Assembly: GCA_964477895.1 (NCBI GenBank)
Contig: CAYZFQ010000003.1
Coordinates: 122,243 to 186,242, forward strand
Source: an uncultured Bacteriovoracaceae bacterium
Lineage (GTDB): Bacteria; Bdellovibrionota; UBA2428
Reading direction: 5' to 3'
DNA length: 64,000 nucleotides
Position 1 is the stretch's first letter. Every line of letters begins with the position of its first letter. The position numbers and the translations under genes were made by a program. Under the pieces are notes generated by a model. It made no database searches. It saw only the letters and a program-made list of their open reading frames with translations, and was not told the DNA's origin. This document shows positions 39,969-63,225 of this stretch, in pieces.

Positions 39969-40130
39969 TCGAGCCTCCCTTGGTGCGCTTCTGCACCGCA
40001 CAATAAACTCTTCGTCACAATGCAGCATTTCTTTAGCGCGTTGCGCAAAATTTAACAAAGCGTCAAAAAAGCGTGTGTTTTTAAGGAGATCCTATTCTCC
40101 TGGGGGGGCCTTAGCTGGCATAATAAGGCT

Positions 40131-42227
40131 ATGGCAAAAAGTTTCGATGTAAAAAACTTTGTGACCCAAAACCATAATCTCGATGAATTTAAAAAAGTTC
40201 ATTGGAGTGGGAACTTCCAAGACTACGTCGACCTTCTCACCGAAAGCCCTGAAATTGGGCGCAATGCCTTCCAACGTTTGTATGACATGATTCTTTCATG
40301 GGGCAGCGAAGAGTCTGTCGATTTTAAAAAGAAACTGACTCACTACAATCTTTTCAATGACCCCATCGAGAACGGCCAGGATGCTGTTTTTGGTTTGGAA
40401 GTGCCTTTGATGAAGTTGGTTGACGTGTTGAAAAGCGCAGCCAAAGGTTACGGCACCCAGAATCGTGTGATCCTTTTGCACGGTCCTGTAGGTTCCTCAA
40501 AATCCACCATTGTGCGCATGCTGAAAAAAGGCATGGAACATTACACCAAGCAAGACTCCGGCCGCCTCTACACTTTTTCTTGGATTAATCCTGAAAATGA
40601 AAACATTGCCGTCTTTCGCCAGCTCCAAGAACTGGGCGTGGAAGAAATGCCTGATCCTATGAATGAAGATCCCCTAAAGCTTTTACCGGAAGATCTTCGT
40701 CCGAAATTTTTAGAAGAGCTCTACAAGGGTCGTAAGTCGGAATGGAAGATTGCCATTAAGGGCGAACTCAATCCGGCTTCCCGCTACATGTACCAAGAAC
40801 TGATGCGCCATTACAACGGAGACTGGACCAAAGTCATGGGCCACATCAAAGTGCGAAGACTTCTCTTCTCTGAAAAAGACAGAGTGGGAATTGGCACATT
40901 CCAACCCAAAGATGAAAAGAACCAAGACTCCACAGAGCTCACCGGCGACATCAACTACCGCCGGATTGCTATTTTCGGCTCTGACTCTGACCCCCGAGCT
41001 TTCAACTTTGACGGCGAGTTCAACGTGGCCAACCGTGGTCTCTTAGAGTTCGTGGAAATTTTAAAGCTCGACGTGGCTTTCTTGTATGATCTCTTAGGAG
41101 CTTCCCAAGAGCACAAGATTAAACCTAAGAAATTCGCTCAGACAGACATTGATGAAGTGATCATCGGCCATACCAACGAACCTGAGTACAAAAAACTTCA
41201 AAATAACGAGTTTATGGAAGCTCTCCGTGACCGTACTATCAAGGTGGATATTCCCTACATCACCAAGTGGAAGCAAGAGACTAAAATCTACAAAAAAGTC
41301 TTCAACCGAGACCGAGTGCGCAATATCCACATCGCTCCCCACACTCTTGAGATGGCTGCCATGTGGGCCATTCTCACTCGCCTGGAGATGCCAAAAAAGG
41401 CCAATCTCAGTATTCTGCAGAAATTAAAACTTTACGACGGAAAAACTCTTCCAGGATTCACGGAGGACAACGTAAAAGAGCTTCGTAAAGAAACTTTACG
41501 CGAAGGTATGGATGGAATTTCTCCGCGTTATATTTATGATAAAATTTCTAACGCTTTAGTGCAGAACGGGGAGACCACGGGCTGCCTCAACCCCTTTATG
41601 GTACTCAATGAACTCGAAGGCGGACTCAAAAACCACTCCCTCATCAACAACGAAGAAAAGAAAAAACTCTACCGGGAGCTCCTTTCCGTTGTGAAGCAGG
41701 AATATGAGGACATCGTTAAAAACGAAGTTCAAAGAGCGATCTCAGCCGATGAAGATGCCATTGCTAAGCTCTGCGCCAACTACATCGACAACGTGAAGGC
41801 CTACACCCAAAAAGAAAAGGTGCGCAATCGTTACACAGGTCAATACGAGGAACCCGATGAGCGCCTCATGCGGTCGATTGAAGAAAAAATCGACATCCCT
41901 GAAATCAGAAAAGAAGATTTCCGTCGCGAGATCATGAACTACATTGGCGCCTTGGCTGTTGAGGGCAAAACCTTCGACTACAAAACCAATGAGAGATTGC
42001 ATAAAGCTCTCGAGCTGAAACTTTTTGAAGATCAGAAGGACTCCATCAAACTCACAACCCTCGTGAGCAATGTGGTCGACAAAGCTACCCAAGAAAAAAT
42101 CGACATCGTAAAAACTCGATTGATCAAAAACTTTGGTTACGATGAAGTTTCCGCAACCGACGTGTTGCAGTTTGTGGCCTCGATTTTTGCTCGCGGTGAT
42201 AGCAAGATTTCTAAAGAAAAGGCCTAA
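40131..42227 (+). CDS. prkA: PrkA family serine protein kinase (AAA-like N-domain)
   Basis: 698 aa. Walker A motif [14 protein letters not shown]. PrkA-family conservation throughout. Confidence 0.9.
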
Positions 42228-47236: not shown

Positions 47237-49813
47237 TCAGCTTCTGAGCTCTGCCTGAAATTTCGCCTTCACAGCCTCAAGACCTTTTTTGCAAATGGCA
47301 GAGATCTCCTCATCCGACAGAGTTTTCTCCGCTCCCTGAAGCAAAAGCCTAAAGGCCAAGGATTTTTTCTCTTCCGACATCACATAGAGATCCAAGCACT
47401 TCAGCTCAAGCAGCTCAGCACCCAAGGCTTGCTTCAGCGTCTTTTCAATATCAGACTCTTTAACATCAGCCGCCACGACAAAGGCAAAATCTCGCTCTAC
47501 GACAGGCAAACGCTTGCTGGGAGTGACCTTAGCTCGACCCTTAGGAAAGACCTCATCCCCCGCCACCATTCTCTCGGAGACCGTCAACAAATCCTTCAGC
47601 ACGCAAATTTCACCAAGGACAGCTCCTAACTGCAATCCTGTGGGCAAATTCAAAAGTTCCCCCTTGTGCGCCGGGTGCAATTCTCCCACGTAACCCACAA
47701 TGCCGCCCGGGAACTTGCCGGGCAGACTGATAAGGGCAGACCGAGCCGGATGCAAAAGCGCTAAGGGAATCCATGGGGCCGCAAGCTGAATTTCCGCCAC
47801 GTTCACGTCCAAAAGAGAAATAAATTGGGCCGAATTCATTCGGGGTTCCAGCTGGGCCGCATGCTTTAAAAATTCTTCCGCAATGCCCTTGGCATCAAAA
47901 AAGTCTACCGGAGCTTTGCGTTCCGCGTTTTTTTTATCGCTCGACCAATGATCTTCCTGACGCTGCCCCAAAAGAGCCCATGCCGCATGAAAATTTTCCA
48001 AAGTACCCGTTTGACGATCTTGGTTGAGCGTGGGATCCGCCACAAAAACCGAGCCGCTATCAAAAAAACTTCCGCGCAATTGATTCATTCCAGCATGCCG
48101 TTGCAAGACCTTGATTAAGCCAAAACTTAGGTTGGGTCGCATATAGAGCCAGTCTTGAGATAGGGGATTTTTGAGTTGGACCACCTTAGCCTGAGGAACA
48201 AACGCGCGTTCGGCTTCCGAAATAAAAGCGTAGGGCATCATCTCCGTAAGTCCGCAGTCGAGCAAACGCCGACGCAAAGTCCGCAACTTTTTGTACAGGG
48301 AGGTGGTAGCCCCCTCGGTGGCGTGACCTTGGACAGGATAGCGTGTAGGGATCTGCTCAAAACCTGTAAGACGAGCCGCCTCTTCGATAAGATCGATTTC
48401 GCGGGCAAGGTCGAGTCGATGAGTGGGAATCTCGACTCGCAAAACATTGGAGGACTTCAATTGGGCCTCGATATCAACCGACTTGAATGAAGCCATCAAA
48501 GTTTCGGGACTGATATCAATTCCCACCACTTCTTTAAAATTTCTCATATCAAAGTTAAGACTACTTTTGTTCAAGAGCTTTTCGGCCTTCTCGGACTTGA
48601 TCTCGATAAAGGCCCCACGCCTGCGAGCTCCACAAAACTGCTTAGCCAGCAAAGCAAAGCGCCCTGCCGCTCGGGCCACCCCCACCGCATCCACGCCTCT
48701 CTCAAAGCGATGAGAGGCCTCAGAATGGATTTTGTGACGCTGGCTCATGCCTCTCACCACGTCGGGCTCAAAAAGAGCGGATTCCAAAAGCACGCGTTTT
48801 GTTTTCTCGCTCACACCAGAATCCATTCCACCCATCACTCCGGCCAGCGCCAAAACCTTTTCTAAGTCGGCAATAACCAAATCCTCAGAACTTAAAACTC
48901 GGTCCACCCCGTCTAAAGTTTTTAACTTCTCTCCATTTTTTGCAAAGCGCACGATGAGCCGAGAACCCGTGATTTTATCCGCATCAAAGGCATGCAAAGG
49001 CTGGCCCAGCTCCATCAAAACATAATTCGTAATATCTACGATGCTGTTGTGGGATTTAATCCCCAAAGTCTCGAGCATCCGACGGATGGGTTCAGGGCTC
49101 GGACGGTTCTCCACATTCTCAAAAAGTTGACCGGTGTAAAGGGCGCAAGCCTTAGGTGCCTGAACTTCCACGCTCACTAAAGGCACATCGCTGGAGTCAG
49201 CTGGATTTAAAATCTCAAACTGCGGAAGCTGCCCCTTCACCCCTACCAAGCGTCCTACTTCGCGGGCCATCCCTAGGTGAGACAAACAATCCGCACGATC
49301 GGGGGTGAGCTCCACCTCCCAAATTTCATCGTGCATGCCTAAGGCTTTCACGAGGGACTGCCCCAGGGGCGCAGTGTCGGGCAGATGCAATATCCCCTGT
49401 GACTCCTCGCTTAAGCCCAGCTCTTTTTCAGAACAAAGCATGCCAAAACTTGTCACACCGCGAATGGCCGATTCTTTAATTTTAAAATTTCCCGGGAGTT
49501 CGCAGCCCACCGGAGCAAGGGCCACTTTCACGCCTTCTTTGACGTTAGGCGCCCCACAAACGATTTGCAGCAACTTCTCTCCGGTAAAGACCTGACACAC
49601 ATTCAAGCGGTCGGCTTGAGGGTGCTTTTCAAAACTTTGGATCTGGGCCACAATAACGCCCTCGATCCCTTCGCCTAACTTTTTAACTCCACCGATTTCA
49701 ATACCAGCCAGCGGGAGCTTGGCCCGCAAAATTTGCGAGCGAATGGGTAAACCGTGTTCCAACTTGGGAAAAAAGTCTGATAGCCATTTAAGAGAAATCT
49801 TCATACGCGCCAC
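47237..49813 (-). CDS. pheT: Phenylalanine--tRNA ligase beta subunit
   Basis: 858 aa with conserved PheT domains. Overlaps the pheS stop. Confidence 0.9.
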   Translation of the reverse strand: MARMKISLKWLSDFFPKLEHGLPIRSQILRAKLPLAGIEIGGVKKLGEGIEGVIVAQIQSFEKHPQADRLNVCQVFTGEKLLQIVCGAPNVKEGVKVALAPVGCELPGNFKIKESAIRGVTSFGMLCSEKELGLSEESQGILHLPDTAPLGQSLVKALGMHDEIWEVELTPDRADCLSHLGMAREVGRLVGVKGQLPQFEILNPADSSDVPLVSVEVQAPKACALYTGQLFENVENRPSPEPIRRMLETLGIKSHNSIVDITNYVLMELGQPLHAFDADKITGSRLIVRFAKNGEKLKTLDGVDRVLSSEDLVIADLEKVLALAGVMGGMDSGVSEKTKRVLLESALFEPDVVRGMSQRHKIHSEASHRFERGVDAVGVARAAGRFALLAKQFCGARRRGAFIEIKSEKAEKLLNKSSLNFDMRNFKEVVGIDISPETLMASFKSVDIEAQLKSSNVLRVEIPTHRLDLAREIDLIEEAARLTGFEQIPTRYPVQGHATEGATTSLYKKLRTLRRRLLDCGLTEMMPYAFISEAERAFVPQAKVVQLKNPLSQDWLYMRPNLSFGLIKVLQRHAGMNQLRGSFFDSGSVFVADPTLNQDRQTGTLENFHAAWALLGQRQEDHWSSDKKNAERKAPVDFFDAKGIAEEFLKHAAQLEPRMNSAQFISLLDVNVAEIQLAAPWIPLALLHPARSALISLPGKFPGGIVGYVGELHPAHKGELLNLPTGLQLGAVLGEICVLKDLLTVSERMVAGDEVFPKGRAKVTPSKRLPVVERDFAFVVAADVKESDIEKTLKQALGAELLELKCLDLYVMSEEKKSLAFRLLLQGAEKTLSDEEISAICKKGLEAVKAKFQAELRS

Positions 49814-50883
49814 CTCGCAAATTGCGAAATAAAGCGATGATCAGACTCAAAAAAAGATCGCAAATCATCGATGCCGTATTTCAACATGGCCATGCGCTCA
49901 AGGCCCATACCAAAGGCAAAACCCCGGTAGGATTCCAGATCATAACTCACAGCCTTGAGGACCTCAGGATCCACCATGCCGCAGCCTCCAATTTCGATCC
50001 AACCTGTTTGCTTGCAGGTCTTACAGCCCTGCGCCTTACAAAAAACACATTCCATATCCACTTCGGCCGAAGGCTCGGTAAAGGGAAAGAAGGAGGGTCG
50101 CAAACGCACATTGAGCGAAGCCCCAAAAAATTCCTTGAGCATCTGCGCTAAAATTCCCTTGAGATCCCCCATATGCACATTTCGGTCGATGAGCAGGCCC
50201 TCGATCTGATGGAACATGGGCGAGTGAGTGGCGTCGTAATCGGCCCGGTAAACCCGGCCAGGGCAAAGCATACGAATCGGGGCCTTCATACGAAGCATCG
50301 TGCGCACCTGAACCGGAGAGGTGTGAGTGCGAAGCACCACCGGCTGCTCAGTATTCACAAAGAAAGTGTCTTGCATCGCGCGGGCGGGGTGATTTTTAGG
50401 AAAGTTCAAAGCATCAAAGTTATAAAATTCATGCTCAACTTCCGGACCAATTTCGGCCACAAAACCGCAAGATTCAAAAATATTCACTAACTCATCTTGG
50501 ACCATTTGAACGGGATGCTCATAGGAAGGACGAAGGCCGCGCCCCGGCAGAGTCACATCCACTCGTTCCTTTTTTAAACTCTCAACCAGGACCGCATTTT
50601 TCAGCTCCTCGCTGAGGCCATCGAGAGCCGATGTGATGAGGCCACGAATTTCATTGGCCCGAGCTCCCACCTTAGGTCGGTCTTCACCCGAGAGGCCCCC
50701 GAGTTCCTTCATGATGGAGGTGAGGAAGCCCTTCTTGCCGATCCATTCGATACGCAGGGCCTCGGCATCCGCTAAAGTTTTCTCACTCCCTCGGGCAGAA
50801 CTTTTGAGTTCCGCTATTTTTTGAGTGGCCAGGGACTCAAAATCGCCCAAGCTTTTAAGTAATTCGTCGAGAGATGCCGGCAT
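49801..50883 (-). CDS. pheS: Phenylalanine--tRNA ligase alpha subunit
   Basis: 360 aa. Class II aaRS motifs. Confidence 0.9.
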   Translation of the reverse strand: MPASLDELLKSLGDFESLATQKIAELKSSARGSEKTLADAEALRIEWIGKKGFLTSIMKELGGLSGEDRPKVGARANEIRGLITSALDGLSEELKNAVLVESLKKERVDVTLPGRGLRPSYEHPVQMVQDELVNIFESCGFVAEIGPEVEHEFYNFDALNFPKNHPARAMQDTFFVNTEQPVVLRTHTSPVQVRTMLRMKAPIRMLCPGRVYRADYDATHSPMFHQIEGLLIDRNVHMGDLKGILAQMLKEFFGASLNVRLRPSFFPFTEPSAEVDMECVFCKAQGCKTCKQTGWIEIGGCGMVDPEVLKAVSYDLESYRGFAFGMGLERMAMLKYGIDDLRSFFESDHRFISQFARWRV

Positions 50884-51003
50884 ATAATATTGCTACCTAA
50901 AATCACTCCCGAAGAGAAGATCGAGAGAAAAAAAGCGTGAAAAAGACAAAAAAAAAGCCGCGTCCCAGCATATCTGGGACGCGGCTTAGAATTTTTTAGG
51001 GAC

Positions 51004-51348
51004 TTAGCGAACGGCTTTAACCACCGCTTCAAAGGCGCGGGGGTCGGTCACCGCGAGATCCGCCAAACTCTTTCGATCGAGTTCAACGCTCTTGGCTTTA
51101 AGACCTTGGATCAACTTCGAGTAAGACATATCCAGAGTGCGGGCCGCAGCGTTGATACGCTGGATCCACAATCCACGAAAATCACGTTTCTTAACCTTGC
51201 GGTCGCGAAAAGCGTACTTAAGTGCTCGGGTTACAATTTCATAGGCTTTAGAATAGGAGCGGCTACCTGAGTTGCGGTAACCGGAGGCCATGTCCAAAAC
51301 TTTTTTGTGTCTGCGGCGGGTTTTAAAACCACCTCTTGCGCGTGCCAT
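51004..51348 (-). CDS. rplT: 50S ribosomal protein L20
   Basis: 114 aa. Canonical L20. Confidence 0.9.
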   Translation of the reverse strand: MARARGGFKTRRRHKKVLDMASGYRNSGSRSYSKAYEIVTRALKYAFRDRKVKKRDFRGLWIQRINAAARTLDMSYSKLIQGLKAKSVELDRKSLADLAVTDPRAFEAVVKAVR

Positions 51349-51360
51349 TTTCTATGCTCC

Positions 51361-51558
51361 TTAGGCGTAAGGCAAAAGTCGTTCTAAGCGACTTTGCTGA
51401 GTGGGATGGATCGTATCGGCTTGTTTAAGTCTCCTTAAACGAGAGTTACCTTTACCCAATTGAAGGTGACGACCTCCGCACTTCTTTCGTTTGATTTTTC
51501 CGGTCGCGGTTTTTTTAAAACGCTTTTTTGCGCCGGAGTGGGTTTTAAGTTTTGGCAT
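51361..51558 (-). CDS. rpmI: 50S ribosomal protein L35
   Basis: 65 aa, MPKLKTHSGAKKRFK... AAGGAG SD upstream. Confidence 0.85.
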   Translation of the reverse strand: MPKLKTHSGAKKRFKKTATGKIKRKKCGGRHLQLGKGNSRLRRLKQADTIHPTQQSRLERLLPYA

Positions 51559-51738
51559 TTACGTTTACTCCTTAAAGTAGCCCTACGTCTTGCCACGTAA
51601 GTGCGGGATTTACAATCGCTAAAATACGGAATTTTCGGGACTTTGGGGGATCTAGGACCCCGAGATCGGAGCATGGCTCTCAAGGGAGGGGGCGGAAGGA
51701 ATTGACTCGTTGCGTTATGGGGGATTTCTGCGCATAAT

Positions 51739-52653
51739 TTAGTGGCTCGGGTTGATCTCAGTTTCTAATTTAGACAGAAGTTTTTGGGCTCTTCGATTAT
51801 CCACCTGAGAACCCCTAAAGACCTTTAAGCTCTCGCGCAGAAGGCGCAAAACAGGCTCCGACATGACCTTAAGGCTGGGCTCTTGAATCATATCTCTAGC
51901 ATGACTTTGATAGCTAGCCATGAGCTCACTGACCTTGTTTAAAGCACGAGGATCCCCAGCCTTAGCTGAAAAATATAAATACTTTCCATTCATATCTACT
52001 TTCGATTCGGGCGCTTGGATTTCGAGACTCACGTAATTTTGGAACATTGAACTCAGAAGTCGGTTGATTTTAGGATTGTAAGATCTCGCAAGTAATAATT
52101 TCCCGTGGCGCTCAATAACAGCGGCCAATAAAATATCTAAGGCCTCACACTTGCTATCAATATGTTGAATTTTACTAAAGTGGCCCCGTAGGTCGGGCCC
52201 ACTTTGGTTCACACGTCGACACCGATCAATCTGCGGAAACAAAAATTCAGCCCATCTCTCAACGGAGACCGATTCAACTGCGGCACGAGGGATATCTCCA
52301 GCAAAGATGCTATTGCCCTCTGCTTTCTTAGCCACGATAAAATCCTGTATCACGGAAGGAATTTCAATATTGGAGAAATTATATTTTGAAATCTCGCCGT
52401 TAATTCCATTTTCGCGCTCACTCAACTTAGGCAAATCATAATTTCCATTTTCACGGTCAGCTACATGAGCTTTCTGATTGGCCATGAATTCCTCTAGCAG
52501 ATTCGCTAGGTCTGCCGCTTTGCCAATCGGCCGGTCATCATAAGAGACCTTTTCTTTTTCCCTATGACTTGCTACGGGATTCGATTTCTTCCCGTAAACA
52601 AACCCGGGAAAAGCACTCCCCAAAACCCAAACGGAAAAGATCGCCAATCTCAT
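51739..52653 (-). CDS. Hypothetical secreted protein
   Basis: Signal peptide. No recognised domain. Located between the prepilin-like gene and rpmI. Confidence 0.5.
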   Translation of the reverse strand: MRLAIFSVWVLGSAFPGFVYGKKSNPVASHREKEKVSYDDRPIGKAADLANLLEEFMANQKAHVADRENGNYDLPKLSERENGINGEISKYNFSNIEIPSVIQDFIVAKKAEGNSIFAGDIPRAAVESVSVERWAEFLFPQIDRCRRVNQSGPDLRGHFSKIQHIDSKCEALDILLAAVIERHGKLLLARSYNPKINRLLSSMFQNYVSLEIQAPESKVDMNGKYLYFSAKAGDPRALNKVSELMASYQSHARDMIQEPSLKVMSEPVLRLLRESLKVFRGSQVDNRRAQKLLSKLETEINPSH

Positions 52654-52707
52654 AACTCCATTATACGCGGTCTCAAAATACGAACTAAAGTAAAGTTTAG
52701 GTTAATC

Positions 52708-53718
52708 TCAAGGCTGTAGCTGCATCGGAGTGACGTAGAGCTTCAAATCCCAGTTATTGGGGTTGATATCAAGAATCTCTCCAGAATTTTTATCAAATAT
52801 GCGCATCTTTGCTCCATCTTTATTGTGGATGTAAATACTGCTCGGGGTAACGGTATAAAAAAAGGCTAAATTGAAAGGATTGGTTTCCATAACAAAGGGA
52901 ATTTCCTCTCCAACTTGATAATTGGCCTCAGTCGTTTTTGCCTTCAAGGCCATTCGAGCGATGATATTTGTGGTGTTAAAGGGATTCGGGATAGTGACAC
53001 GAGGATTGCCAAAAGGGGGGCCTGGAGTCGGAGTCGTCAAAGCAGAAGCGGATGCTTGTACCACAAAAGTCCGCGTAGCCGACTCTGGTAACTGAACCCC
53101 GCATCTTTGAATTTTCCCATTTGTCGTAGAACCCAAGGGATTAACAAGAATCTTCACTCCAAACTGAGCCGTGTATGAAGGAGCCCCGTAAGAACCGGCC
53201 TGCTTTTTCACACCCAAAAGAAGTTGGGCTGTGAAAGCCCTGTAAGGTGTCGTCACAGGGGGAGTCGCATTATTAGCTACATCGACGATTCCATCGTAAG
53301 TGGCTTCAGTAAACTCAAGCTTTTCTACCACCATGCCCCCACCTAAATTCTGATTGATAGAAACGATGGTGGAGGAGCCCTGAACGATTTTTTGCACGGG
53401 AAGTGGTGCGGTTGGGCTCAGCACATTCACTGCGGGATTTGTGGTGAGGGTTAACCAAGTAGAGGTCGCTGGCAACTGAAGACTCACATGGGAGCCGTCG
53501 GCATTCTGAAAGGCGCCATTGCAGCTGTTGCCGGCCAGAACCAAGGTGATATTAGATTTTAAGGTGTCGAACTCCACGGCATTCTGAACGTTTTTCTGCC
53601 CTTTGATGGCCGACGACATAAACTGGTTAAAAATCACGGCCACCAAACCCAAGATGGTGATGGCAACTAAAACCTCAATCATTGATAATCCACGCCGGCT
53701 ACTCTTCATAAGTACCAT
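52708..53718 (-). CDS. Prepilin-type N-terminal cleavage/methylation domain protein (large type IV pilin/pseudopilin-like)
   Basis: The class-III signal SSRRG|LSMIEVLVAITILGLVAVIF follows Met at 53718/53709. The ORF-track extension to 53928 overlaps infC and is rejected. Confidence 0.6.
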   Translation of the reverse strand: MVLMKSSRRGLSMIEVLVAITILGLVAVIFNQFMSSAIKGQKNVQNAVEFDTLKSNITLVLAGNSCNGAFQNADGSHVSLQLPATSTWLTLTTNPAVNVLSPTAPLPVQKIVQGSSTIVSINQNLGGGMVVEKLEFTEATYDGIVDVANNATPPVTTPYRAFTAQLLLGVKKQAGSYGAPSYTAQFGVKILVNPLGSTTNGKIQRCGVQLPESATRTFVVQASASALTTPTPGPPFGNPRVTIPNPFNTTNIIARMALKAKTTEANYQVGEEIPFVMETNPFNLAFFYTVTPSSIYIHNKDGAKMRIFDKNSGEILDINPNNWDLKLYVTPMQLQP

Positions 53719-53758
53719 TATGCCTGAATTTGAGCTGAGGTTAAGACCTGTGCTTTTT

Positions 53759-54403
53759 TTAAGCCGCGTCGGTCCCGCCGCCAGCGGCAGGAGCCGGCGG
53801 AACCGGAGGCGCAAAGGACCCACCCCCACCAAAGCCAGGATTATTACTTCGACGCACCGGCGGGCTCTTAGGCAAGCTTTGCAGCAAGGCACCTGGAGCC
53901 AATTTCTTACCCGGAGGTACCGGACCAAAGATCACAGCCAGACGTTTGCCCTCGAGCTTCGGCATCATTTCCATCACGGCCCGGTCTTGTAATTTATTGA
54001 TAAATTGAATCAGAGTCTGCCAACCGGTTTCGATGTGCTCCAGTTCCCGACCTCGGTAAAATACCGTGAGCTTAACTTTGTCCCCATCTTCCAAAAATCC
54101 AATGGCCGACTTGGCTTTGTGTTCCAAATCATGACTTTCGGTTTTCGGGCGGATCTGGATTTCTTTGATCTCCACGATCACTTGTTTTTTCTTGGCCACT
54201 TGGGCCTTCTTTTTTTCTTCGTACTTATATTTGCCGTAGTCCATGATCTTGCAAACAGGCGGATCGGACTTTTGCGCCACTTCCACAAGATCAAGCCCCA
54301 GCGAATCCGCCATTTGGGTGGCCTGACGAGTGTCGAGAATGCCCAGCTGTTCGCCGTCTTTTCCGATCACACGCACATAGGCCGCACGAATTTGTCGATT
54401 AAT
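53759..54403 (-). CDS. infC: Translation initiation factor IF-3, probable non-canonical (ATT/ATC) start; Pro/Gly-rich C-terminal tail
   Basis: The ORF track starts at an internal GTG (54376). The reading frame continues upstream as ...INRQIRAAYVRVIGKDGEQLGI, matching the IF-3 N-domain. AAGGAGG lies just after the thrS stop. Candidate ATT start at 54401-54403 or ATC at 54422-54424. Confidence 0.75.
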   Translation of the reverse strand: MNRQIRAAYVRVIGKDGEQLGILDTRQATQMADSLGLDLVEVAQKSDPPVCKIMDYGKYKYEEKKKAQVAKKKQVIVEIKEIQIRPKTESHDLEHKAKSAIGFLEDGDKVKLTVFYRGRELEHIETGWQTLIQFINKLQDRAVMEMMPKLEGKRLAVIFGPVPPGKKLAPGALLQSLPKSPPVRRSNNPGFGGGGSFAPPVPPAPAAGGGTDAA

Positions 54404-54435
54404 ATTTAACTCTTTGAAGCTGATAAAGCCCTCCT

Positions 54436-56301
54436 TTAGAGCTTGGGTTGTGCGGATTCTTGAGCGAAGAGCTCCAAGAGCGCATCCATCGTAACATTGG
54501 ATTTCTGGCTTCCATCGCGTAAACGCAAGCTGACTTGTTTTTCCTGAGCTTCTCTGGCGCCGATAATGATCATATAAGGGGATTTGTGGGCCTGGTATTT
54601 TTTAATTTTGCCCGAAAGTTTGTCTGAAGAATCATCAATAAGGACACGATAACCCCTTTTTTTCAGTTCAGCAAAGAGAGAATTCGCAAAGTCTACGGAT
54701 TCATCTGAAACCGAGAGTATCACCGCCTGCATGGGTGCCAGCCACATGGGAAAGTGTCCGGCCACGTGCTCAATAAAAATCCCGATAAATCGCTCAAGAG
54801 AACCCGCGATCGCTCGGTGGATCATGACGGGAGTATGCATTTGATTATCAGAACTTACGTACTCCAGACTAAAGTTTTTAGGCATATTAAAATCGAGCTG
54901 AACGGTGCCGCATTGGTGGGTGCGCCCGATTGAGTCCCTGAGGTGAAAGTCGATCTTGGGCCCGTAGAAGGCCCCATCACCGGGATTAACTTTGTAGGTG
55001 AGGTCCGCCGCTTTTAAGGCATTGGCGAGAGCCCCCTCGGCCTTGTCCCAAATTTCTTCTGAGCCCATGCGTTTTTCCGGGCGAGTGGAGAGTTCCACAA
55101 AGTAATCAAAGCCAAAGCCCTTGTAAAATTTGCGGACCATCTCAAGAACCCGGGTGATCTCTGACTCAATTTGGTCTTGGGTGCAGTACACGTGGGCATC
55201 GTCTTGAACAAAGCTGCGCACTCTGAAAAGCCCGGCCGTAACCCCACTTCGCTCGTGCCGATGCACTCTTCCAAACTCCGCAAAGCGAATCGGAAGCTCA
55301 CGGTAGGAGTGCCGAAAGGTTTTAAACATTAAGCAATGACCTGGGCAGTTCATAGGCTTCAAAGCGAAATCCCGCTCATCCACCTGGGTAAAGTACATAT
55401 TTTCAGCGTAGTTCTGGTAGTGCCCCGACATCTTCCAAAGTTCTTGTGAGAGCACAAGTGGGGTGATCACATCTTCAAATCCATACTCTCGGTTCAAAGC
55501 ACGCAGGTAGTCTTGAATTTGAATATATAAAAAAGCCCCCGCCGGATGGAAAAAGGGAGAGGCCGGAGCTTCCGGATGAAAGGAAAAAAGATGTTGGTCC
55601 GTGCCTATGCGGCGGTGATCTCGCTTTTTAGCCTCTTCAATTTGGGTAAGGTAAGCCTGAAGTCCTTCTTTAGACGCGAAAGCCGTGCCGTAAATTCGCG
55701 CGAGCATTTCGTTTTTTTCATCGCCCCGCCAGTAAGCTCCCGCCACACTCATCAGCTTAACGGCTGGAATGTGGCCCGTAGATCCCACGTGGGGGCCTCG
55801 GCACAAATCCACAAAATCACCTTGCCAATAGACACTCACAGAAGTGATTCCCTGGGCTTTTTGTAAATCCCGGATAATTTCGCACTTATAGTTTTCGCCA
55901 AGTCCTTTGAAAAATTCAATGGCCTTGTCCACAGCCCAGTCTTCGCGGCGGATGGGGAGTTTGGCTTTGATGATTTCCTTCATCTTGGCTTCGATCGCTG
56001 GGAGCTCTTCTTCTTTAAAGCCGCCCTTGCGAACAAAGTCGTAGTAAAAACCATTTTCAATCACCGGACCAATGGTCACTTGGACCTCAGGATACAAGGC
56101 CTTAACCGCTTGGGCCAAAATATGAGCCGAGCTGTGGCGGATAATATCGAGCCCGTCCGCAGAATCAGGCTTCACCCACTCGTAGCCTGAGGTATCGGCG
56201 GGCAATTCCATATGGATGTCGTAGATTTGACCTGCGACCTTAATGCCAACAACGGTAAATCCAGGAGGCTGTGCTTTTAAGAGGTCGAGGCCGCGACTCA
56301 T
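54436..56301 (-). CDS. thrS: Threonine--tRNA ligase
   Basis: 621 aa. Class II aaRS with TGS and editing domains. Confidence 0.9.
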   Translation of the reverse strand: MSRGLDLLKAQPPGFTVVGIKVAGQIYDIHMELPADTSGYEWVKPDSADGLDIIRHSSAHILAQAVKALYPEVQVTIGPVIENGFYYDFVRKGGFKEEELPAIEAKMKEIIKAKLPIRREDWAVDKAIEFFKGLGENYKCEIIRDLQKAQGITSVSVYWQGDFVDLCRGPHVGSTGHIPAVKLMSVAGAYWRGDEKNEMLARIYGTAFASKEGLQAYLTQIEEAKKRDHRRIGTDQHLFSFHPEAPASPFFHPAGAFLYIQIQDYLRALNREYGFEDVITPLVLSQELWKMSGHYQNYAENMYFTQVDERDFALKPMNCPGHCLMFKTFRHSYRELPIRFAEFGRVHRHERSGVTAGLFRVRSFVQDDAHVYCTQDQIESEITRVLEMVRKFYKGFGFDYFVELSTRPEKRMGSEEIWDKAEGALANALKAADLTYKVNPGDGAFYGPKIDFHLRDSIGRTHQCGTVQLDFNMPKNFSLEYVSSDNQMHTPVMIHRAIAGSLERFIGIFIEHVAGHFPMWLAPMQAVILSVSDESVDFANSLFAELKKRGYRVLIDDSSDKLSGKIKKYQAHKSPYMIIIGAREAQEKQVSLRLRDGSQKSNVTMDALLELFAQESAQPKL

Positions 56302-59106: not shown

Positions 59107-60084
59107 CTACTTGCGAAGCAACTTCGCGGCTTCCACCGCCCAGTAAGTCAAAATAAACTGCGCCCCGGCGCGCTTAAAGCTCAGCAGACTTTCCATAAAG
59201 ACTTTCTGCTCATCCACCCAGCCCTGAGCTGCGGCGGCCTTCACCATCGAGTACTCCCCACTCACATGATACACACCCACAGGAATTGGCGATTCATTGG
59301 TGACCTCTCGCAAAATATCAAGGCAGGGAATCCCTGGCTTAACCAAAAGCATGTCGGCTCCTTGGTCCACGTCGAGCCGCGCCTCCCGTAAAGCCTCTTT
59401 ACGATTGGCCACGTCCATTTGATAAGTTTTTCGGTCTCCAAACTGTGGGGCGTTCTCTGCGGCCTCACGGAAGGGGCCATAAAAACTCGAGGCGTATTTC
59501 ACTGCATATGAGCAAAGGCTAATGTGATTTTTATTATCTTTGTCTAGCGCCAAGCGCATCTTCGCAATCATGGAGTCCACCATGCCGGATGGTGCAATAA
59601 TATTTGCGCCCGCATTCGCGTAACACAATGCCATTTTTTCAAGTCCAGCCAAAGTGGCCTCACGCTCACGCAACTGAGATTCCACATGCATGGGCCCACA
59701 ATGGCCATGACTCGTATATTCGCAGTAACAGGCATCAGCGAATAAATTTACATCGCCCAACTCTTTGCGATACTTTCGCAAAGCTTCGGCCACCGGACCT
59801 TTTTCGTCCCAAGCCTTTTCTCCACCCGGACTTTTGTCGGCGGAATCCACAATGCCAAACAAAATAAAACTTTTAACTCCGAGTTCTCGGGCCTCAGTTA
59901 CAAATTTTAACGAATCTTCCACCGACCACTGGCGCACGCCAGGCATGGAGGAAATATCTCGGCTCTTTGTGTGATTTAGAAATAGAGGAAGTACGAGGTC
60001 TTGGCTGCGCAAAGAATTTTCGGCCACCAGATCTCTTAAAGCAGAACTGCTTCGAAGACGTTCAGGACTATGCATGCCTCGCAT
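59107..60084 (-). CDS. hemB: Porphobilinogen synthase (delta-aminolevulinate dehydratase)
   Basis: 325 aa. Conserved ALAD motifs including active-site lysines. Confidence 0.9.
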   Translation of the reverse strand: MRGMHSPERLRSSSALRDLVAENSLRSQDLVLPLFLNHTKSRDISSMPGVRQWSVEDSLKFVTEARELGVKSFILFGIVDSADKSPGGEKAWDEKGPVAEALRKYRKELGDVNLFADACYCEYTSHGHCGPMHVESQLREREATLAGLEKMALCYANAGANIIAPSGMVDSMIAKMRLALDKDNKNHISLCSYAVKYASSFYGPFREAAENAPQFGDRKTYQMDVANRKEALREARLDVDQGADMLLVKPGIPCLDILREVTNESPIPVGVYHVSGEYSMVKAAAAQGWVDEQKVFMESLLSFKRAGAQFILTYWAVEAAKLLRK

Positions 60085-60129
60085 CTAAAAAGAAAAGCCC
60101 GATTCTCTCAAGGAGAATCAGGCCTTTTC
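60085..60129. terminator. Bidirectional hairpin terminator abutting the hemB start codon
   Basis: GCCC-GATTCTC-TCAAG-GAGAATC-A-GGC hairpin (60097-60123) flanked by an A-run (60086-60096) and TTTT (60125-60128). Confidence 0.5.
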
Positions 60130-60167
60130 GCATGAAGGGCCCTTCAGCCCTAGCCTTACAACCGTTT

Positions 60168-60311
60168 TTAGCGACTTGCTTCGCCAGTCAACGGAACGTG
60201 TGCTCTGTATTGCTCGTTATGTGAAGCCGTATCGCGGTTTTCTTTCGAACCACAAGCGCTGGTCACAACCGAGAGAAGCAAGATTCCCAGAATCCAAAAT
60301 GATCGTTTCAT
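60168..60311 (-). CDS. Small lipoprotein (47 aa), below the ORF-track cutoff
   Basis: ATG 60311 is preceded by a GGGGGAG SD. Sequence MKRSFWILGILLLSVVTSAC|GSKENRDTASHNEQYRAHVPLTGEASR. Followed on the minus strand by the 60085-60129 terminator. Confidence 0.45.
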   Translation of the reverse strand: MKRSFWILGILLLSVVTSACGSKENRDTASHNEQYRAHVPLTGEASR

Positions 60312-60587
60312 AAACTCCCCCAATCCTGATGTTAGTGCCAAATAGACCTTCTAGTTATTGGACTCCTGAAAAAAGTATTTAGGTTAATCTTTCTTCTAAA
60401 ATCCTTCCAAAACGCGTCCTACTTACAGACTACTCGCGTTCTTATCTACGGCAATGCTATTTATCGGCAAGATGGCTCAAAAATCTGACGCTGTGACAAC
60501 TTGTGTTGGCAGAAATTCTTCACGAAATCTTAACTTTTGCGTAGGCAATTTCAGGGTATCCTGAAAGGAGCAGCAAAGGAGGAACGT

Positions 60588-60794
60588 ATGAGGAAAGCTG
60601 TTGGAGTTTTATTCTTAGGCGCCCTCAGCTGGGCTTTGACTGCTGAAGCGGGGATAGCCCCTCGTAAAAAGCCACCGATCCGCTTGCCGAGTAGCCAAAA
60701 AATTCTCAACCCCGCTCCCTCGAATTACGAAGTCAGCCCTGATGGAAGCATTCATTTTAAAGACATTCGCAAAGTCAAAAAATCACGAAAATAA
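60588..60794 (+). CDS. Small secreted basic protein (68 aa)
   Basis: AAGGAGG SD before ATG 60588. Signal peptide MRKAVGVLFLGALSWALTAEA. The ORF track started at 60537. Confidence 0.5.
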   Translation: MRKAVGVLFLGALSWALTAEAGIAPRKKPPIRLPSSQKILNPAPSNYEVSPDGSIHFKDIRKVKKSRK

Positions 60795-62006
60795 ACGAGG
60801 GGCTCGACTCAAAAGCAGTTGCCCACTTTTATTTAAAAAATACTCTGCAGGAATGGGCCGACAATTGTAATGGGAAGCCATCACATATCCATAAGCACCC
60901 ACCCCTTCGATCACAAAAAAATCATTCTCCTGAGGACTTGTAAAACTTCGGTCTCGTCCTAAAACATCAGAACTTTCGCAAACCGGACCGACCACATCAA
61001 AATTCTTTTGTTCGCCCAGGTTTTTCGCACGTAGGGGGCCCATGGGATGCACGGCCTGATAAAGGGCCGGACGCAGAAGCTCTGTCATGCTCGCGTCCAC
61101 AATGAGGAAGTTTTTCTTAAGCGTGGATTTTGTTCCTAAAACTCGAGTCACTAAAAAACCCGCCTGGGCGACGAGGGCCCTTCCTAATTCATTATAAACG
61201 AGAGCCTCAGACCCCTGCAGAGCCTGCCATTCACGCGTTGTCTGGGCCACAAGTTTGCCATAGGCGCTAAAGGGCGGGAGCTTCTGGGGCTCCGAATAGG
61301 GCACCCCTAAGCCGCCCCCAACGTCTAAAATTTTAAGCGAATGACCTTGAACTTTAAGCTCCTTCGCAAAATCCAGAGTGAGTTTTAGAGCCGAGGCCAA
61401 GGCCGAGAGGTCGAGCATCTGAGAACCAATATGCACGCTAATTCCATTCATTTTAAGGTGAGGGGACGACTTTAAGCGAGTGGCTAACTTTTGAGCCTCA
61501 TTAAAATCAATTCCAAACTTATGCTCGTGTAGGCCTGTTGAAATATAGGGATGACTTTTGGCATCCACATCGGGATTCACACGAAAGGCAATTTGCGCTT
61601 GAGTTCCCAGCTCGGCACAACATTCTTCCAGGCGTTGCAACTCGCCTTCACTCTCCACCACGATTAAATCCACCCGAGCTTTAAGTGCAGACCTTAGCTC
61701 CCCTCGACTTTTGCCCACCCCCGAGAAAATCATATCGGAGCTCGCAAAGCCGCTACTTTTCGCCACCTCTAATTCAAAGCCTGAAACTAAATCCACCCCA
61801 CAATTCTTAGACAAGAAGAACTTTAGGACATCGGGATTTGTATTGGATTTTAAGGCAAAGTGGGTATGAACAAATTTCACCTCGGCCCCTAAAGATTCTT
61901 GGTAGGCCGACCATAAAGTTTCAAGATGCCTCTCAGTATAAAGATAAAAGGGAGTGCTGAGGGGTTCCAGATCTTCTGTGAGAATATCTCCTAAATGCGG
62001 TAGCAT
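60783..62006 (-). CDS. lysA: Diaminopimelate decarboxylase
   Basis: Fold-III PLP decarboxylase motifs. Start set at ATG 62006 (MLPHLGDIL...TPFYLY), 4 nt after the lysC stop. The longer ORF-track start would overlap lysC. Confidence 0.85.
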   Translation of the reverse strand: MLPHLGDILTEDLEPLSTPFYLYTERHLETLWSAYQESLGAEVKFVHTHFALKSNTNPDVLKFFLSKNCGVDLVSGFELEVAKSSGFASSDMIFSGVGKSRGELRSALKARVDLIVVESEGELQRLEECCAELGTQAQIAFRVNPDVDAKSHPYISTGLHEHKFGIDFNEAQKLATRLKSSPHLKMNGISVHIGSQMLDLSALASALKLTLDFAKELKVQGHSLKILDVGGGLGVPYSEPQKLPPFSAYGKLVAQTTREWQALQGSEALVYNELGRALVAQAGFLVTRVLGTKSTLKKNFLIVDASMTELLRPALYQAVHPMGPLRAKNLGEQKNFDVVGPVCESSDVLGRDRSFTSPQENDFFVIEGVGAYGYVMASHYNCRPIPAEYFLNKSGQLLLSRAPRLFS

Positions 62007-62010
62007 GACT

Positions 62011-63225
62011 TCACTGTGCCAGCTTAAAGACATCATGCAAAGTAGCCACGGTCTTATCTTTGTCCACCGCATCGATCAGCACCGAAACTTTAATTTCACT
62101 TGTTGTGATAAGGAGGCTGGGAACTTGGATCTTTTCTAGACTTTCAAAAAGAGTCGCGGCAACCCCTGAATGAGTGCGCATCCCAATTCCCACAATGGAA
62201 ACCTTCACCACATTTTCTTTTTGAATTCGGGCCTTGGAAGTCGCCAATAGCTCAAGAGCCTTTTTTCCCTCATCCCGGGGGACGGTAAAATTCACATTAC
62301 AAAGGCCTTCTGCGTCGGGTGCCGTTTTAACAATTACATCCACGTTGATTCCGGCATCTGCCAAGGGCCGCAAAAATTTTGCAGGATAGCGCGCTTCGCT
62401 TTCTTTGAGAGTGAGGGCCAAGAGACACTCGGCCGAATCACTGGTGATTGACGACACGACTGGGGATTCTAACATTTCAGACTCCTTTAAAATTGTGGTG
62501 GCCCCACCCTCGGGATCAAAGGTGGAGAGGACTCGCAACTTAAGATCAAATTTAGCCGCTAACTCTACGGAACGCATATGCAAAACCTTCGCCCCTAAAC
62601 TCGCAAGCTCCATCATTTCTGAAAAAGAAATTTCTTTTATAACCCGAGCTTGAGGAACAATTCGCGGATCAGCGGTAAAAACTCCCACCACATCGGTATA
62701 GATATCGCATCGAGACGCCTGTATAGCCGCCGCGATGGCCACTGCCGAAGTGTCTGAACCTCCGCGCCCAAGGGTCGTAATAAAACTTTCACCCTCATCA
62801 TTTTTTCGAACCCCTTGGAAACCCGCGATGACGGGGACCACTCCGGCCTCGAGATATTTTTTCAGCAAGTCGGTCCGGATGTTTTGAATTCGCGCCTTTG
62901 TAAAAAGGTCATCGGTTTCAATGCCCACCTGAAAGCCCAACAGCGGCACCGCAGGGATTCCCCGTTGACTCAAGGCAATGGCTACCAAAGCACAGCTCAC
63001 CTGCTCACCGGAGGCCAAAAGCATATCGTAAGCCGTAGGATCGGGCTGAGCGCTAAGCTCGTAGGCCATTTCCACCAGTTTGTTTGTTTGTCCGGCCATC
63101 GCCGAAACCACCACGACATTTTGCTCAGTCTGTTCCTTGAGAGCAATAAGGTCGGCCACTTTGGCAATGCGCTCTAAACTTCCAACAGAAGTCCCTCCAA
63201 ATTTTTGCACCACAAGCTGTCGCAA
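62011..63225 (-). CDS. lysC: Aspartate kinase
   Basis: 404 aa. N-terminal VVQKFGGTSV kinase motif. C-terminal ACT domains. Confidence 0.9.
   Translation of the reverse strand: MRQLVVQKFGGTSVGSLERIAKVADLIALKEQTEQNVVVVSAMAGQTNKLVEMAYELSAQPDPTAYDMLLASGEQVSCALVAIALSQRGIPAVPLLGFQVGIETDDLFTKARIQNIRTDLLKKYLEAGVVPVIAGFQGVRKNDEGESFITTLGRGGSDTSAVAIAAAIQASRCDIYTDVVGVFTADPRIVPQARVIKEISFSEMMELASLGAKVLHMRSVELAAKFDLKLRVLSTFDPEGGATTILKESEMLESPVVSSITSDSAECLLALTLKESEARYPAKFLRPLADAGINVDVIVKTAPDAEGLCNVNFTVPRDEGKKALELLATSKARIQKENVVKVSIVGIGMRTHSGVAATLFESLEKIQVPSLLITTSEIKVSVLIDAVDKDKTVATLHDVFKLAQ

Follow-up and report, generated by a model that had tools for sequence, protein, structure and literature searches.

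In the stretch of DNA analysed here (the window, 64 kb), the bacterial gene cluster thrS-infC-rpmI-rplT-pheST is interrupted between infC and rpmI by a block of about 2.1 kb that carries two accessory envelope genes, one for a type IV pilin-like protein (pil336) and one for a predicted secreted protein (orf304). We consider it most likely, with a probability of about 0.7, that the block is a lineage-specific insertion at an operon-internal boundary that tolerates such additions, because five relatives lack it and the genes for ribosomal proteins L35 and L20 keep what appears to be a promoter of their own.

The minus strand reads thrS, infC, pil336, orf304, a 180-nt spacer, rpmI, rplT, a strong terminator, pheS and pheT (Table 1). 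The original prediction, that two inserted genes split the conserved infC-rpmI-rplT cluster, agreed with this layout in every feature, position and strand, save that the prepilin-type ORF, correctly located, encodes 336 and not 335 aa. Rather than being immediate neighbours, infC and rpmI have a gap of 2.2 kb with two genes between them; rpmI and rplT are 12 nt apart. The frame of infC is open upstream, and its true start is probably ATC at 54424 or ATT at 54403, while the C-terminal ~50 aa of IF3 form a tail rich in Pro, Gly and Ala. By scan, the terminator after rplT is bidirectional. The domains tRNA-synt_2b and HGTP_anticodon were found for thrS in the gene calls of related loci.

Table 1. 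Features of the thrS-pheT locus in the window (coordinates are window positions).
Feature	Coordinates	Strand	Evidence or remark
thrS (threonyl-tRNA synthetase)	54436-56301	-	621-aa ORF; upstream member of the cluster
infC (IF3)	53759-54376	-	Pfam IF3_N E=5e-27, IF3_C E=7e-28
Left junction, 40-nt gap 3' of the infC stop	53717-53758	-	sequence, promoter and motif scans
pil336 (type IV pilin-like)	52708-53718	-	N_methyl, TIGR02532
pil336/orf304 spacer, 54 nt	52654-52707	-	sequence, motif scan
orf304 (signal-peptide protein)	51739-52653	-	ORF, 304 aa
Distal spacer part, C-rich and G-poor	51616-51738	-	composition, spacer comparison with relatives
rpmI-proximal region, read as ancestral	51559-51615	-	conserved motif and Shine-Dalgarno
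rpmI (L35)	51361-51558	-	Pfam Ribosomal_L35p E=1e-20
rplT (L20)	51004-51348	-	Pfam Ribosomal_L20 E=6e-41
Intrinsic terminator after rplT	50955-50987	-	terminator scan: 14-bp stem, 10 G-C pairs, then T-run
pheS	49801-50883	-	ORF; 66% identical to L084 gene with Phe-tRNA synthetase domains
pheT	47237-49813	-	ORF; 56% identical to L084 gene with Phe-tRNA synthetase domains

Comparison with related loci shows how the cluster is built elsewhere in the clade. In five related lineages rpmI lies 70-145 nt after infC; their IF3 proteins are 80% (L084 and L089), 74% (L095), 79% (L096-98) and 79% (L100) identical to that of the window, and the relatives sampled are moderately close, with ThrS 64-74% identical (L084, L089, L096 and L087). 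The locus L084 keeps the order found in the window on both sides of the cluster, cdd-speA-thrS upstream and pheST-MerR-inositol-phosphate synthase downstream, and these flanks are covered by two contigs of its lineage, of which L085 spans cdd to pheT. Adjacency in five lineages together with the synteny of the flanks indicates that infC-rpmI adjacency is ancestral, and the arrangement in the window is, judged by this comparison, derived and so far unique. A universal arrangement in relatives, with recognised housekeeping functions for both genes, would have spoken against the original prediction; none of the five with a readable junction has it. The closest relative found (IF3 ~87%) carries other genes after infC, on a contig that ends before any rpmI. 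A metagenome scan with the IF3 tail, dominated by low-complexity patterns, returned two loci from lineages already sampled.

A more distant baseline came from a scan of a genome collection with IF3, in which the matches listed were ~50% identical. Wherever both genes were detected among these matches, rpmI lay within a few hundred nt of infC, and loci from Rhodobacteraceae and Gemmataceae had no rpmI within 10 kb of infC. The link between the two genes is therefore not universal. In those families the genes are at different loci, whereas the cluster in the window is complete save for the block inserted into it, and infC and rpmI are still neighbours in its relatives.

The spacer upstream of rpmI (51559-51738), which the original prediction had described as a C-rich leader of 180 nt, is indeed present, with 30% C overall and 35% C and 18% G in the distal 123 nt. 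This distal part has no counterpart in relatives and, by that comparison, belongs to the inserted block. Its C/G ratio of 2.4-2.7 ranks among the highest 1% for segments of 80 nt, a level reached by ~100 other regions as well, and weakly suggests a Rho-utilisation site. The part next to rpmI holds the motif TTGTAA-N14-TGGCAAGAC at 51615-51587 (minus strand), which occurs once in the window, and a Shine-Dalgarno sequence, AAGGAG, at 51573-51568.

The same pattern, TTGyma-N14-TGGCA, stands 55-90 nt upstream of the rpmI ATG in the window as well as in each of the five related lineages; upstream of rpmI in ~60 distant loci among the matches listed, it was absent. Alignments conserve the spacing of the two halves and not the sequence between them; RNAalifold found no conserved RNA structure in six rpmI leaders (consensus -0.17 kcal/mol), and folding of the 180-nt spacer was no more stable than that of shuffled controls (z=+0.49). 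Conservation of the halves, but not of the interior or of any RNA structure, suggests that the element is recognised as DNA, and we read it as an rpmI-proximal promoter with the insert lying upstream of it. The -10-like part of the motif in the window, CAAGAC, bears little resemblance to TATAAT, and a generic promoter scan did not report the motif. Two other roles for the conserved TGGCA were considered: an RNA operator was dropped in favour of a promoter, given the lack of structure in the RNAalifold and spacer folding results, and a sigma-54 site was rejected, since the leader sequences have no TTGC at the required spacing.

In E. coli, the L20 operator takes the form of a pseudoknot between a sequence internal to infC and the region adjacent to rpmI (PMC1888825). 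No such element was detected in the window; the clade instead shares the promoter-like DNA motif. A search of 51559-54435 against Rfam at E<=10 gave no match and no L20 leader, and one tRNA (32322) was the only match in the window when gathering scores were applied; weak matches near 50950 were noise from the rplT terminator hairpin. Neither Rfam nor the folding tests found a structured RNA for L20 to bind ahead of rpmI or infC, although an operator of a novel type may exist. The window is otherwise like the thrS-infC-rpmI-rplT-pheST cluster that E. coli shares with most bacteria and in which L20 controls the translation of rpmI-rplT, keeping the gene order, the strand, the terminator after rplT and the tight linkage of the rpmI and rplT cistrons; it is unlike that cluster in having infC and rpmI 2.1 kb apart with two unrelated genes between.

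We propose that a block spanning approximately 51616-53758, with its two accessory cell-envelope genes, entered the short infC-rpmI spacer and came to lie between the infC stop codon and the clade-conserved rpmI-proximal promoter. The cluster would then consist of semi-autonomous units, namely thrS-infC, rpmI-rplT as a unit bounded by a separate promoter and terminator, and pheST, a division that would explain why it tolerates the insertion. Having their own promoter and terminator, rpmI and rplT would allow L35 and L20 synthesis to proceed independently of transcription from infC.

The block itself holds two ORFs and nothing else: no integrase or transposase was found at the insert, flanking direct or inverted repeats were not above chance, PHROGs and PADLOC scans of the block gave no match, and the tRNA noted above is the only one in the window, so that features of a mobile element or genomic island are lacking at the insert. 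The third-position GC content (GC3) of orf304 is 0.44, as compared to 0.50-0.57 in most of the neighbouring housekeeping genes, which we count in favour of insertion.

Insertion at this position might be part of a wider pattern, in which the infC/rpmI and rplT/pheS boundaries are preferred landing sites for small accessory cassettes in the clade, reached in independent events. Three different cargoes were seen at cluster boundaries in three lineages: the block in the window, an unrelated 163-aa secreted ORF with an ArsR-type regulator gene after infC in L087 and L088, and a PLD gene with a 287-aa ORF between rplT and pheS in L089 and L090. The cargoes of the other lineages also count in favour of the preferred reading of an insertion. 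Just after the infC stop in the window, where relatives have the rpmI motif, there is also a sequence with the spacing of that motif, TTAACC-N14-aGGCATAAT, possibly a copy of the motif that arose through the insertion and has since diverged. We hold this idea tentatively and think it rather unlikely, as three events in a handful of lineages are a small sample, att-like repeats and a recombinase were not found, and the L087 contig stops too early to show if rpmI comes next, so that rearrangement is possible there instead of insertion. It may also be that insertions simply do no harm at any point where an operon is already divided by a promoter or terminator.

The first of the inserted genes had been predicted to carry a class III (prepilin) signal peptide, and the profile searches agree: pil336 scored 25.8 bits with Pfam N_methyl (PF07963; cut-off 21.2) and 25.2 with TIGR02532 (cut-off 16.3). 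The leader is short, positively charged and ends in Gly, reading MKSSRRG/L from ATG 53709 or MVLMKSSRRG/L from ATG 53718 (the slash marks the cleavage site), and alignment with homologues suggests that ATG 53709 is the real start, with the leader MKSSRRG/LSMIEV. Glu stands at +5 of the mature protein, where L-S-M-I-E is followed by VLVAITILGLVAVIF, a hydrophobic helix. The homologue P0002 has the leader MRSKISG/F. Three homologues were found, all in unrelated contexts away from infC and rpmI. They share with pil336 a pilin-like module of ~210 aa, which in all four sequences contains an invariant QKNVQN stretch and a Cys pair (Cys66/Cys206 in pil336), and they differ in their C-terminal domains; that of pil336 is a variable, predicted beta-domain of ~125 aa. 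Foldseek of pil336 against the PDB gave no match, and a profile search against PDB sequences matched the N-terminal helix alone (Geopilin, E=0.007).

By analogy with this signature, prepilin peptidase would cleave pil336 after Gly7 (counted from ATG 53709), and the protein, which would probably be a minor subunit or sit at the tip, would enter a type IV filament via its N-terminal helix and display the variable domain at its C-terminus. Modular type IV pilins are known, such as PilB of Streptococcus sanguinis, which carries a vWA module (PMC8179133). Compared to these, the C-terminal module of pil336 has no recognisable domain, its +1 residue is Leu and not the commoner Phe, its gene does not adjoin pilus genes, and the protein is known from sequence alone. 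It also scores far under the family cut-offs of PilV, PilX, GspI, GspJ and GspK, exceeds them two- to threefold in length at 336 aa, and, unlike minor pilins and pseudopilins, is encoded outside any minor-pilin operon. The prepilin motif of pil336 is the one such motif in the whole window. Pilus assembly genes were absent among the ORFs scanned with Pfam (27.6-47.2 kb and 58.4 kb onward), which included only a PilZ-domain protein, at 38822-39553.

The second gene had been called a signal-peptide protein of unknown function, and this description still fits. A Sec-type signal peptide, read by eye as MRLAIFSVWVLGSAFPGFVYG with cleavage before KK, opens the protein; Pfam, NCBIfam, PADLOC and PHROGs gave no match, and searches returned the protein itself and nothing else among 5.8 billion clustered proteins (word index) and 1.84 billion representative proteins (phmmer). 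The AlphaFold2 model is all-helical with pLDDT 51, a confidence too poor for a fold search; the product is probably a secreted helical protein. No similarity was seen between orf304 and the neighbours of the pil336 homologues or the L087 cargo.

The lack of any homologue among the representative proteins, the poor structure prediction and the lack of pilus assembly genes in the parts of the window examined could mean that one or both ORFs are non-functional, with orf304 either in decay or of very recent origin and pil336 an orphan that no pilus machinery uses any longer. We consider this improbable. The two ORFs are too long for chance origin, and intact runs of 304 and 336 codons at ~45% GC would be very unlikely without selection; codon usage is best in frame 0 for both genes, the signal peptide of orf304 is well formed, and the pilin module is conserved in four sequences, including QKNVQN and the Cys pair.

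How the inserted genes are transcribed can be suggested from the DNA. A promoter-like site, TTAACC-N16-CATAAT, lies at 53744-53717, its -10-like hexamer 7 nt before ATG 53709, and TATAAT is found at 52665-52660, 6 nt before the ATG of orf304; four such hexamers 6-7 nt before an ATG occur in the 64 kb, three of them preceding long ORFs. Neither pil336 nor orf304 has a good Shine-Dalgarno sequence. On the preferred reading of an accessory insertion, each of the two genes probably has a weak promoter of its own and is also reached by transcripts that read through from thrS-infC, as no terminator intervenes. The terminator scan reported nothing convincing between infC and rpmI, which makes physical capture into the transcription unit plausible, and pil336 and orf304 may be part of the operon transcript. 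The original prediction of a pair captured into a ribosomal operon survives to that extent; as a functional pair the two genes fare badly, since orf304 has no homologues and the three homologues of pil336 have unrelated neighbours.

A stronger version of capture, in which a pilin-like and a secreted gene were recruited to the IF3-L35-L20 unit so that their levels follow translation capacity, seems to us improbable as well. It draws on the single strand, the short gaps (40 and 54 nt) and the lack of a convincing infC-rpmI terminator. In one variant, both mRNAs would be leaderless, inhibited by high IF3, and so respond inversely to infC just upstream; as described above, a good Shine-Dalgarno sequence is missing from both genes and -10-like hexamers stand 6-7 nt ahead of their start codons, and raised IF3 is documented to inhibit translation of leaderless E. 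coli model mRNAs (review PMC9031893). The arrangement, however, is conserved in 0/5 relatives with a readable junction, and pil336 and orf304 never co-occur elsewhere. IF3 acts in trans, so such a response would need no adjacency to infC. The suggestion that expression of the pair is tied to translation status likewise runs against the missing arrangement in those relatives, the clade-conserved promoter-like element that rpmI keeps downstream of the insert, and the -10-like hexamer that each inserted gene has of its own; no evidence of functional coupling to translation was found. We give very little credence to the combined proposal that CATAAT-N7-ATG and TATAAT-N6-ATG mark leaderless or near-leaderless mRNAs, encoded directly behind infC, whose translation is set by the cellular IF3 level and that the infC/rpmI boundary is, in this clade, a recurrent docking site for secreted-protein cassettes, although, if true, it would describe a surface-structure module switched on at low IF3.

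Both outer junctions of the insert were reproduced in separately assembled Logan contigs of run SRR13208889. Contig L094 is 100% identical to window 56063-53161 (2903 nt) and contains thrS and infC together with 558 nt from the start of pil336; contig L083 is 100% identical to window 52087-50468 (1620 nt) and contains the 3' end of orf304, the spacer, rpmI, rplT and pheS. The central pil336/orf304 junction (53161-52087, 1.07 kb) is covered by the window alone. A chimera, in which metagenome misassembly joined two genes to the ribosomal cluster, could be imagined from the apparently metagenome-derived source contig of 313 kb, known from one NCBI record only, and from that central stretch left uncovered by the Logan contigs retrieved, but is scarcely credible when the infC/pil336 and orf304/rpmI junctions recur at 100% identity, each half of the insert is anchored to the cluster and synteny with relatives runs on along both flanks. 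The outer junctions are not an assembly artefact, contrary to the chimeric assembly that had been raised as a possible refutation.

The finding leaves the current understanding of translation-gene regulation and of pili unchanged. It shows that accessory genes can settle at a boundary within one of the most conserved bacterial clusters while all parts of the cluster are retained, and a suggested reason for this tolerance is that rpmI and rplT, downstream, seem to have kept a promoter of their own. Three by-products may be useful: a very small new pilin-like family, in which the pilin module is conserved and the C-terminal domains vary, a promoter-like motif before rpmI that is specific to the clade, and a hint that the boundaries of the cluster may collect differing cargo across lineages.

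Pfam matches and the reading of open reading frames confirmed that infC and rpmI are separated by two genes, and they upheld the coordinates of the original prediction, though not its length for the pilin-like ORF, which is 336 aa counted from ATG 53718 (pil336). The inserted block extends from 53758, just past the infC stop, to a point near 51616 that lies upstream of a conserved motif before rpmI, and no repeats, recombinase gene or tRNA were found at its ends. The reading we favor, with a probability of roughly 0.7, is a lineage-specific insertion into a modular cluster, at one of its permissive boundaries: two accessory envelope genes would have entered at the infC/rpmI junction in this lineage, while rpmI-rplT would remain self-sufficient through its own putative promoter and terminator.

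Gene order and other features of the infC-rpmI region (window positions)
Feature	Position or length	Strand	Remarks
cdd	58819-58406	minus	
speA	58331-56298	minus	
thrS	56301-54436	minus	
infC	54376-53759	minus	Pfam IF3_N and IF3_C
gap infC/pil336	40 nt		
pil336, prepilin-type ORF	53718-52708	minus	Pfam N-terminal methylation motif, TIGR02532
gap pil336/orf304	54 nt		
orf304, 304-aa ORF	52653-51739	minus	
spacer orf304/rpmI	180 nt		
conserved rpmI motif region	51587-51615		clade-specific
rpmI	51558-51361	minus	Pfam L35
gap rpmI/rplT	12 nt		
rplT	51348-51004	minus	Pfam L20
strong hairpin terminator	50987-50955		between rplT and pheS
pheS	50883-49801	minus	
pheT	49813-47237	minus	

Relatives were located with IF3, the infC product, as the query, and their contigs were then read. 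The window's arrangement was absent from all five related lineages with a readable junction: rpmI follows infC after 128 nt in L084 (80% IF3 identity), 144 nt in L089, L090 and L091 (80%), 92 nt in L095 (74%), 70 nt in L096-L098 (79%) and 69 nt in L100 (79%, the second-best IF3 match by score). The split is thus not a conserved arrangement, since the relatives read keep rpmI 69-144 nt past infC; this closeness implies that adjacency is ancestral for the clade, and the window's insert is derived and has so far been seen only here. With ThrS 64-74% identical to that of the window, these relatives stand at the family level rather than among sister strains. The 79-kb L084 contig shares with the window the upstream order cdd-speA-thrS and, downstream, pheS-pheT, a MerR-family gene, inositol-phosphate synthase and a chromate transporter. 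Between a nadB fragment and cdd, at 59107-63225, the window carries hemB and genes for aspartate kinase and a diaminopimelate/ornithine-type decarboxylase; in L084 cdd comes almost directly after nadB, a local difference in gene content. Among loci from distant genomes, those with both genes detected have rpmI within a few hundred nt past infC, and Rhodobacteraceae and Gemmataceae loci had no rpmI near infC.

The closest IF3 proteins (about 87% identity) are those of contigs L087 and L088, where infC is followed not by rpmI but by a 163-aa signal-peptide ORF and an ArsR-type HTH regulator gene (L087, 1442-2553), neither similar to the window's two genes; the L087 contig ends before any rpmI position. 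L089 (9413-10822) and L090 (4718-7000) show another kind of insertion in this cluster: between rplT and pheS, on the opposite strand, they carry a gene of the phospholipase-D family and an ORF of 287 aa. The cluster boundaries have taken different cargo in different lineages, and the cargoes in L087 and L089 lend moderate support to the possible, though doubtful, view that these boundaries are a recurrent landing site, which is compatible with the insertion we favor.

The class III prepilin leader expected in the first inserted gene was recovered by an N-terminal methylation motif above the Pfam gathering score, with which TIGR02532 concurs. Homologue alignment favors ATG 53709, giving a 7-residue leader (MKSSRRG, followed by LSMIEV) and suggesting that this, not 53718, is the true start. 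Only three homologues were found (41-53% identity), on short metagenomic contigs with unrelated neighbors, mostly on the opposite strand. In the alignment the N-terminal ~210 residues are conserved and include the class III signal peptide along with two invariant features, a QKNVQN stretch and the Cys66/Cys206 pair; past this module, toward the C terminus, the sequences either diverge or show no relationship. AlphaFold2 modeled residues 13-62 as a helix, together with a beta-sheet, at pLDDT 70-90 as far as residue 208; the C-terminal beta-domain is of low confidence, and Foldseek returned no PDB match. This layout of a conserved pilin module and a variable C-terminal part matches that of modular pilins, which combine a pilin module with a grafted functional one and are reported to be widespread and very diverse (PMC8179133). 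The prepilin motif in pil336 is the only one in the 64-kb window, and no pilus assembly genes were found among the ORFs scanned from 27.6 kb onward. The pilin-like protein represents a small new family of a kind already known.

The second gene, orf304, is a secreted hypothetical as anticipated, with a Sec-type signal peptide recognized by eye and no family match in Pfam, NCBIfam, PADLOC or PHROGs. It is a strict orphan: a search of 5.8 billion clustered proteins and a full phmmer scan against 1.84 billion representatives each returned no match but orf304 itself; AlphaFold2 predicted an all-helical protein at low confidence (pLDDT 51). Its GC3 is 0.44, versus 0.50-0.57 in most neighboring housekeeping genes, and its best codon usage falls in frame 0; orf304 therefore has the look of a genuine gene, if somewhat atypical in composition. 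That the inserted ORFs are non-functional is improbable.

No convincing terminator was found between infC and rpmI, where the few terminator-like matches are weak and inside coding sequence (over the scanned region their number is close to chance expectation), and read-through from thrS-infC into both genes is therefore plausible. Hexamers resembling a -10 element lie 6-7 nt before each ATG, CATAAT (53722-53717) before pil336 ATG 53709 and TATAAT (52665-52660) before orf304 ATG 52653. There are only four cases of [C/T]ATAAT close to an ATG in 64 kb, three of them preceding long ORFs, the third being a prkA-like gene at 40131 (motif span 40116-40133). This suggests that both inserted genes have their own putative promoters and very short leaders or none at all, and the mRNAs of all three may be leaderless or nearly so. 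Before pil336, TTAACC-N14-aGGCATAAT has spacing identical to the rpmI motif and stands where relatives carry that motif, 12-18 nt past the infC stop; as a lead only, this site may derive from a copy of the ancestral promoter that has since diverged. The proposal that expression of the inserted genes is tied to translation status gains nothing from conservation, and survives only as a speculative variant built on leaderless mRNAs, which high IF3 inhibits in E. coli (PMC9031893); IF3 acts in trans, so adjacency to infC would not be needed, and we rate this slightly below non-functional ORFs.

Joining of the two genes to the cluster by chimeric assembly is very unlikely, barely worth entertaining, because both outer junctions are reproduced at 100% identity in two Logan contigs from run SRR13208889, L094 (56063-53161; thrS, infC and the first 558 nt of pil336) and L083 (52087-50468; the orf304 3' end, spacer, rpmI, rplT and pheS), leaving the middle 1.07 kb of the insert region as the sole stretch without a second contig.

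In this clade IF3 has a low-complexity C-terminal tail, 40-90 aa beyond IF3_C and rich in Pro, Gly and Ala (IF3 alignment A4; window 53759-53920), that differs in length among lineages and contains poly-Gln and poly-Ala runs in L087. Upstream of the listed infC GTG the frame is open (54376-54437), encoding ...LNINRQIRAAYVRVIG, which matches the longer N-termini of the relatives' proteins P0016 and P0019, and a Shine-Dalgarno AAGGAGG (54436-54430) lies 5 nt before ATC 54424; together these make a non-AUG start (ATC 54424 or ATT 54403) likely. A non-AUG start is known for infC elsewhere. The rplT product is 95 aa in the contig's NCBI record versus 114 aa in the Logan gene call, and the 114-aa form spans the full Pfam L20 model (51004-51348); the true start therefore probably lies upstream of the deposited one. 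The hairpin at 50955-50987 (perfect 14-bp stem, 10 G-C pairs, T-runs on both strands) would terminate transcription in both directions and accounts for weak Rfam sRNA matches near rplT/pheS.

The spacer before rpmI is 30% C. Its distal 123 nt (51616-51738; 35% C, 18% G) resemble a Rho-utilisation site, with 35 C versus 14 G in the richest 80 nt, but about 100 other window regions have a similar ratio. The spacer folded no better than shuffled sequence and matched no Rfam family, and comparison with relatives indicates that only its proximal ~57 nt are ancestral. In that part a motif, TTGyma-N14-TGGCAnnyy, precedes the rpmI ATG by 55-58 nt in the window, L095, L096 and L100, by 74 nt in L089 and by 90 nt in L084 (8605-8629), with an AAGGAG-type Shine-Dalgarno sequence downstream. 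TTGyma-N14-TGGCA occurs once in the whole window (51615-51591), and the 200 nt before rpmI at about 60 distant loci did not contain the motif. The 14 nt between its halves are not conserved, and RNAalifold gave no consensus structure for the leaders (-0.17 kcal/mol); the fixed spacing, variable filling and lack of structure point to a DNA-level element. We infer a putative sigma-70-type promoter, with a -35 of TTGTCA/TTGTAA and an extended weak -10 of TG-n-CAAnTT, at which a generic promoter scan gave no call. In E. coli, L20 represses rpmI through a pseudoknot pairing sequence inside infC with a region next to rpmI (PMC1888825), whereas nothing comparable was detectable in the window. The interruption of the cluster is genuine and, within this clade, unusual, yet as an event it is of an ordinary kind, and the clade-specific promoter-like motif before rpmI is the most useful new observation.
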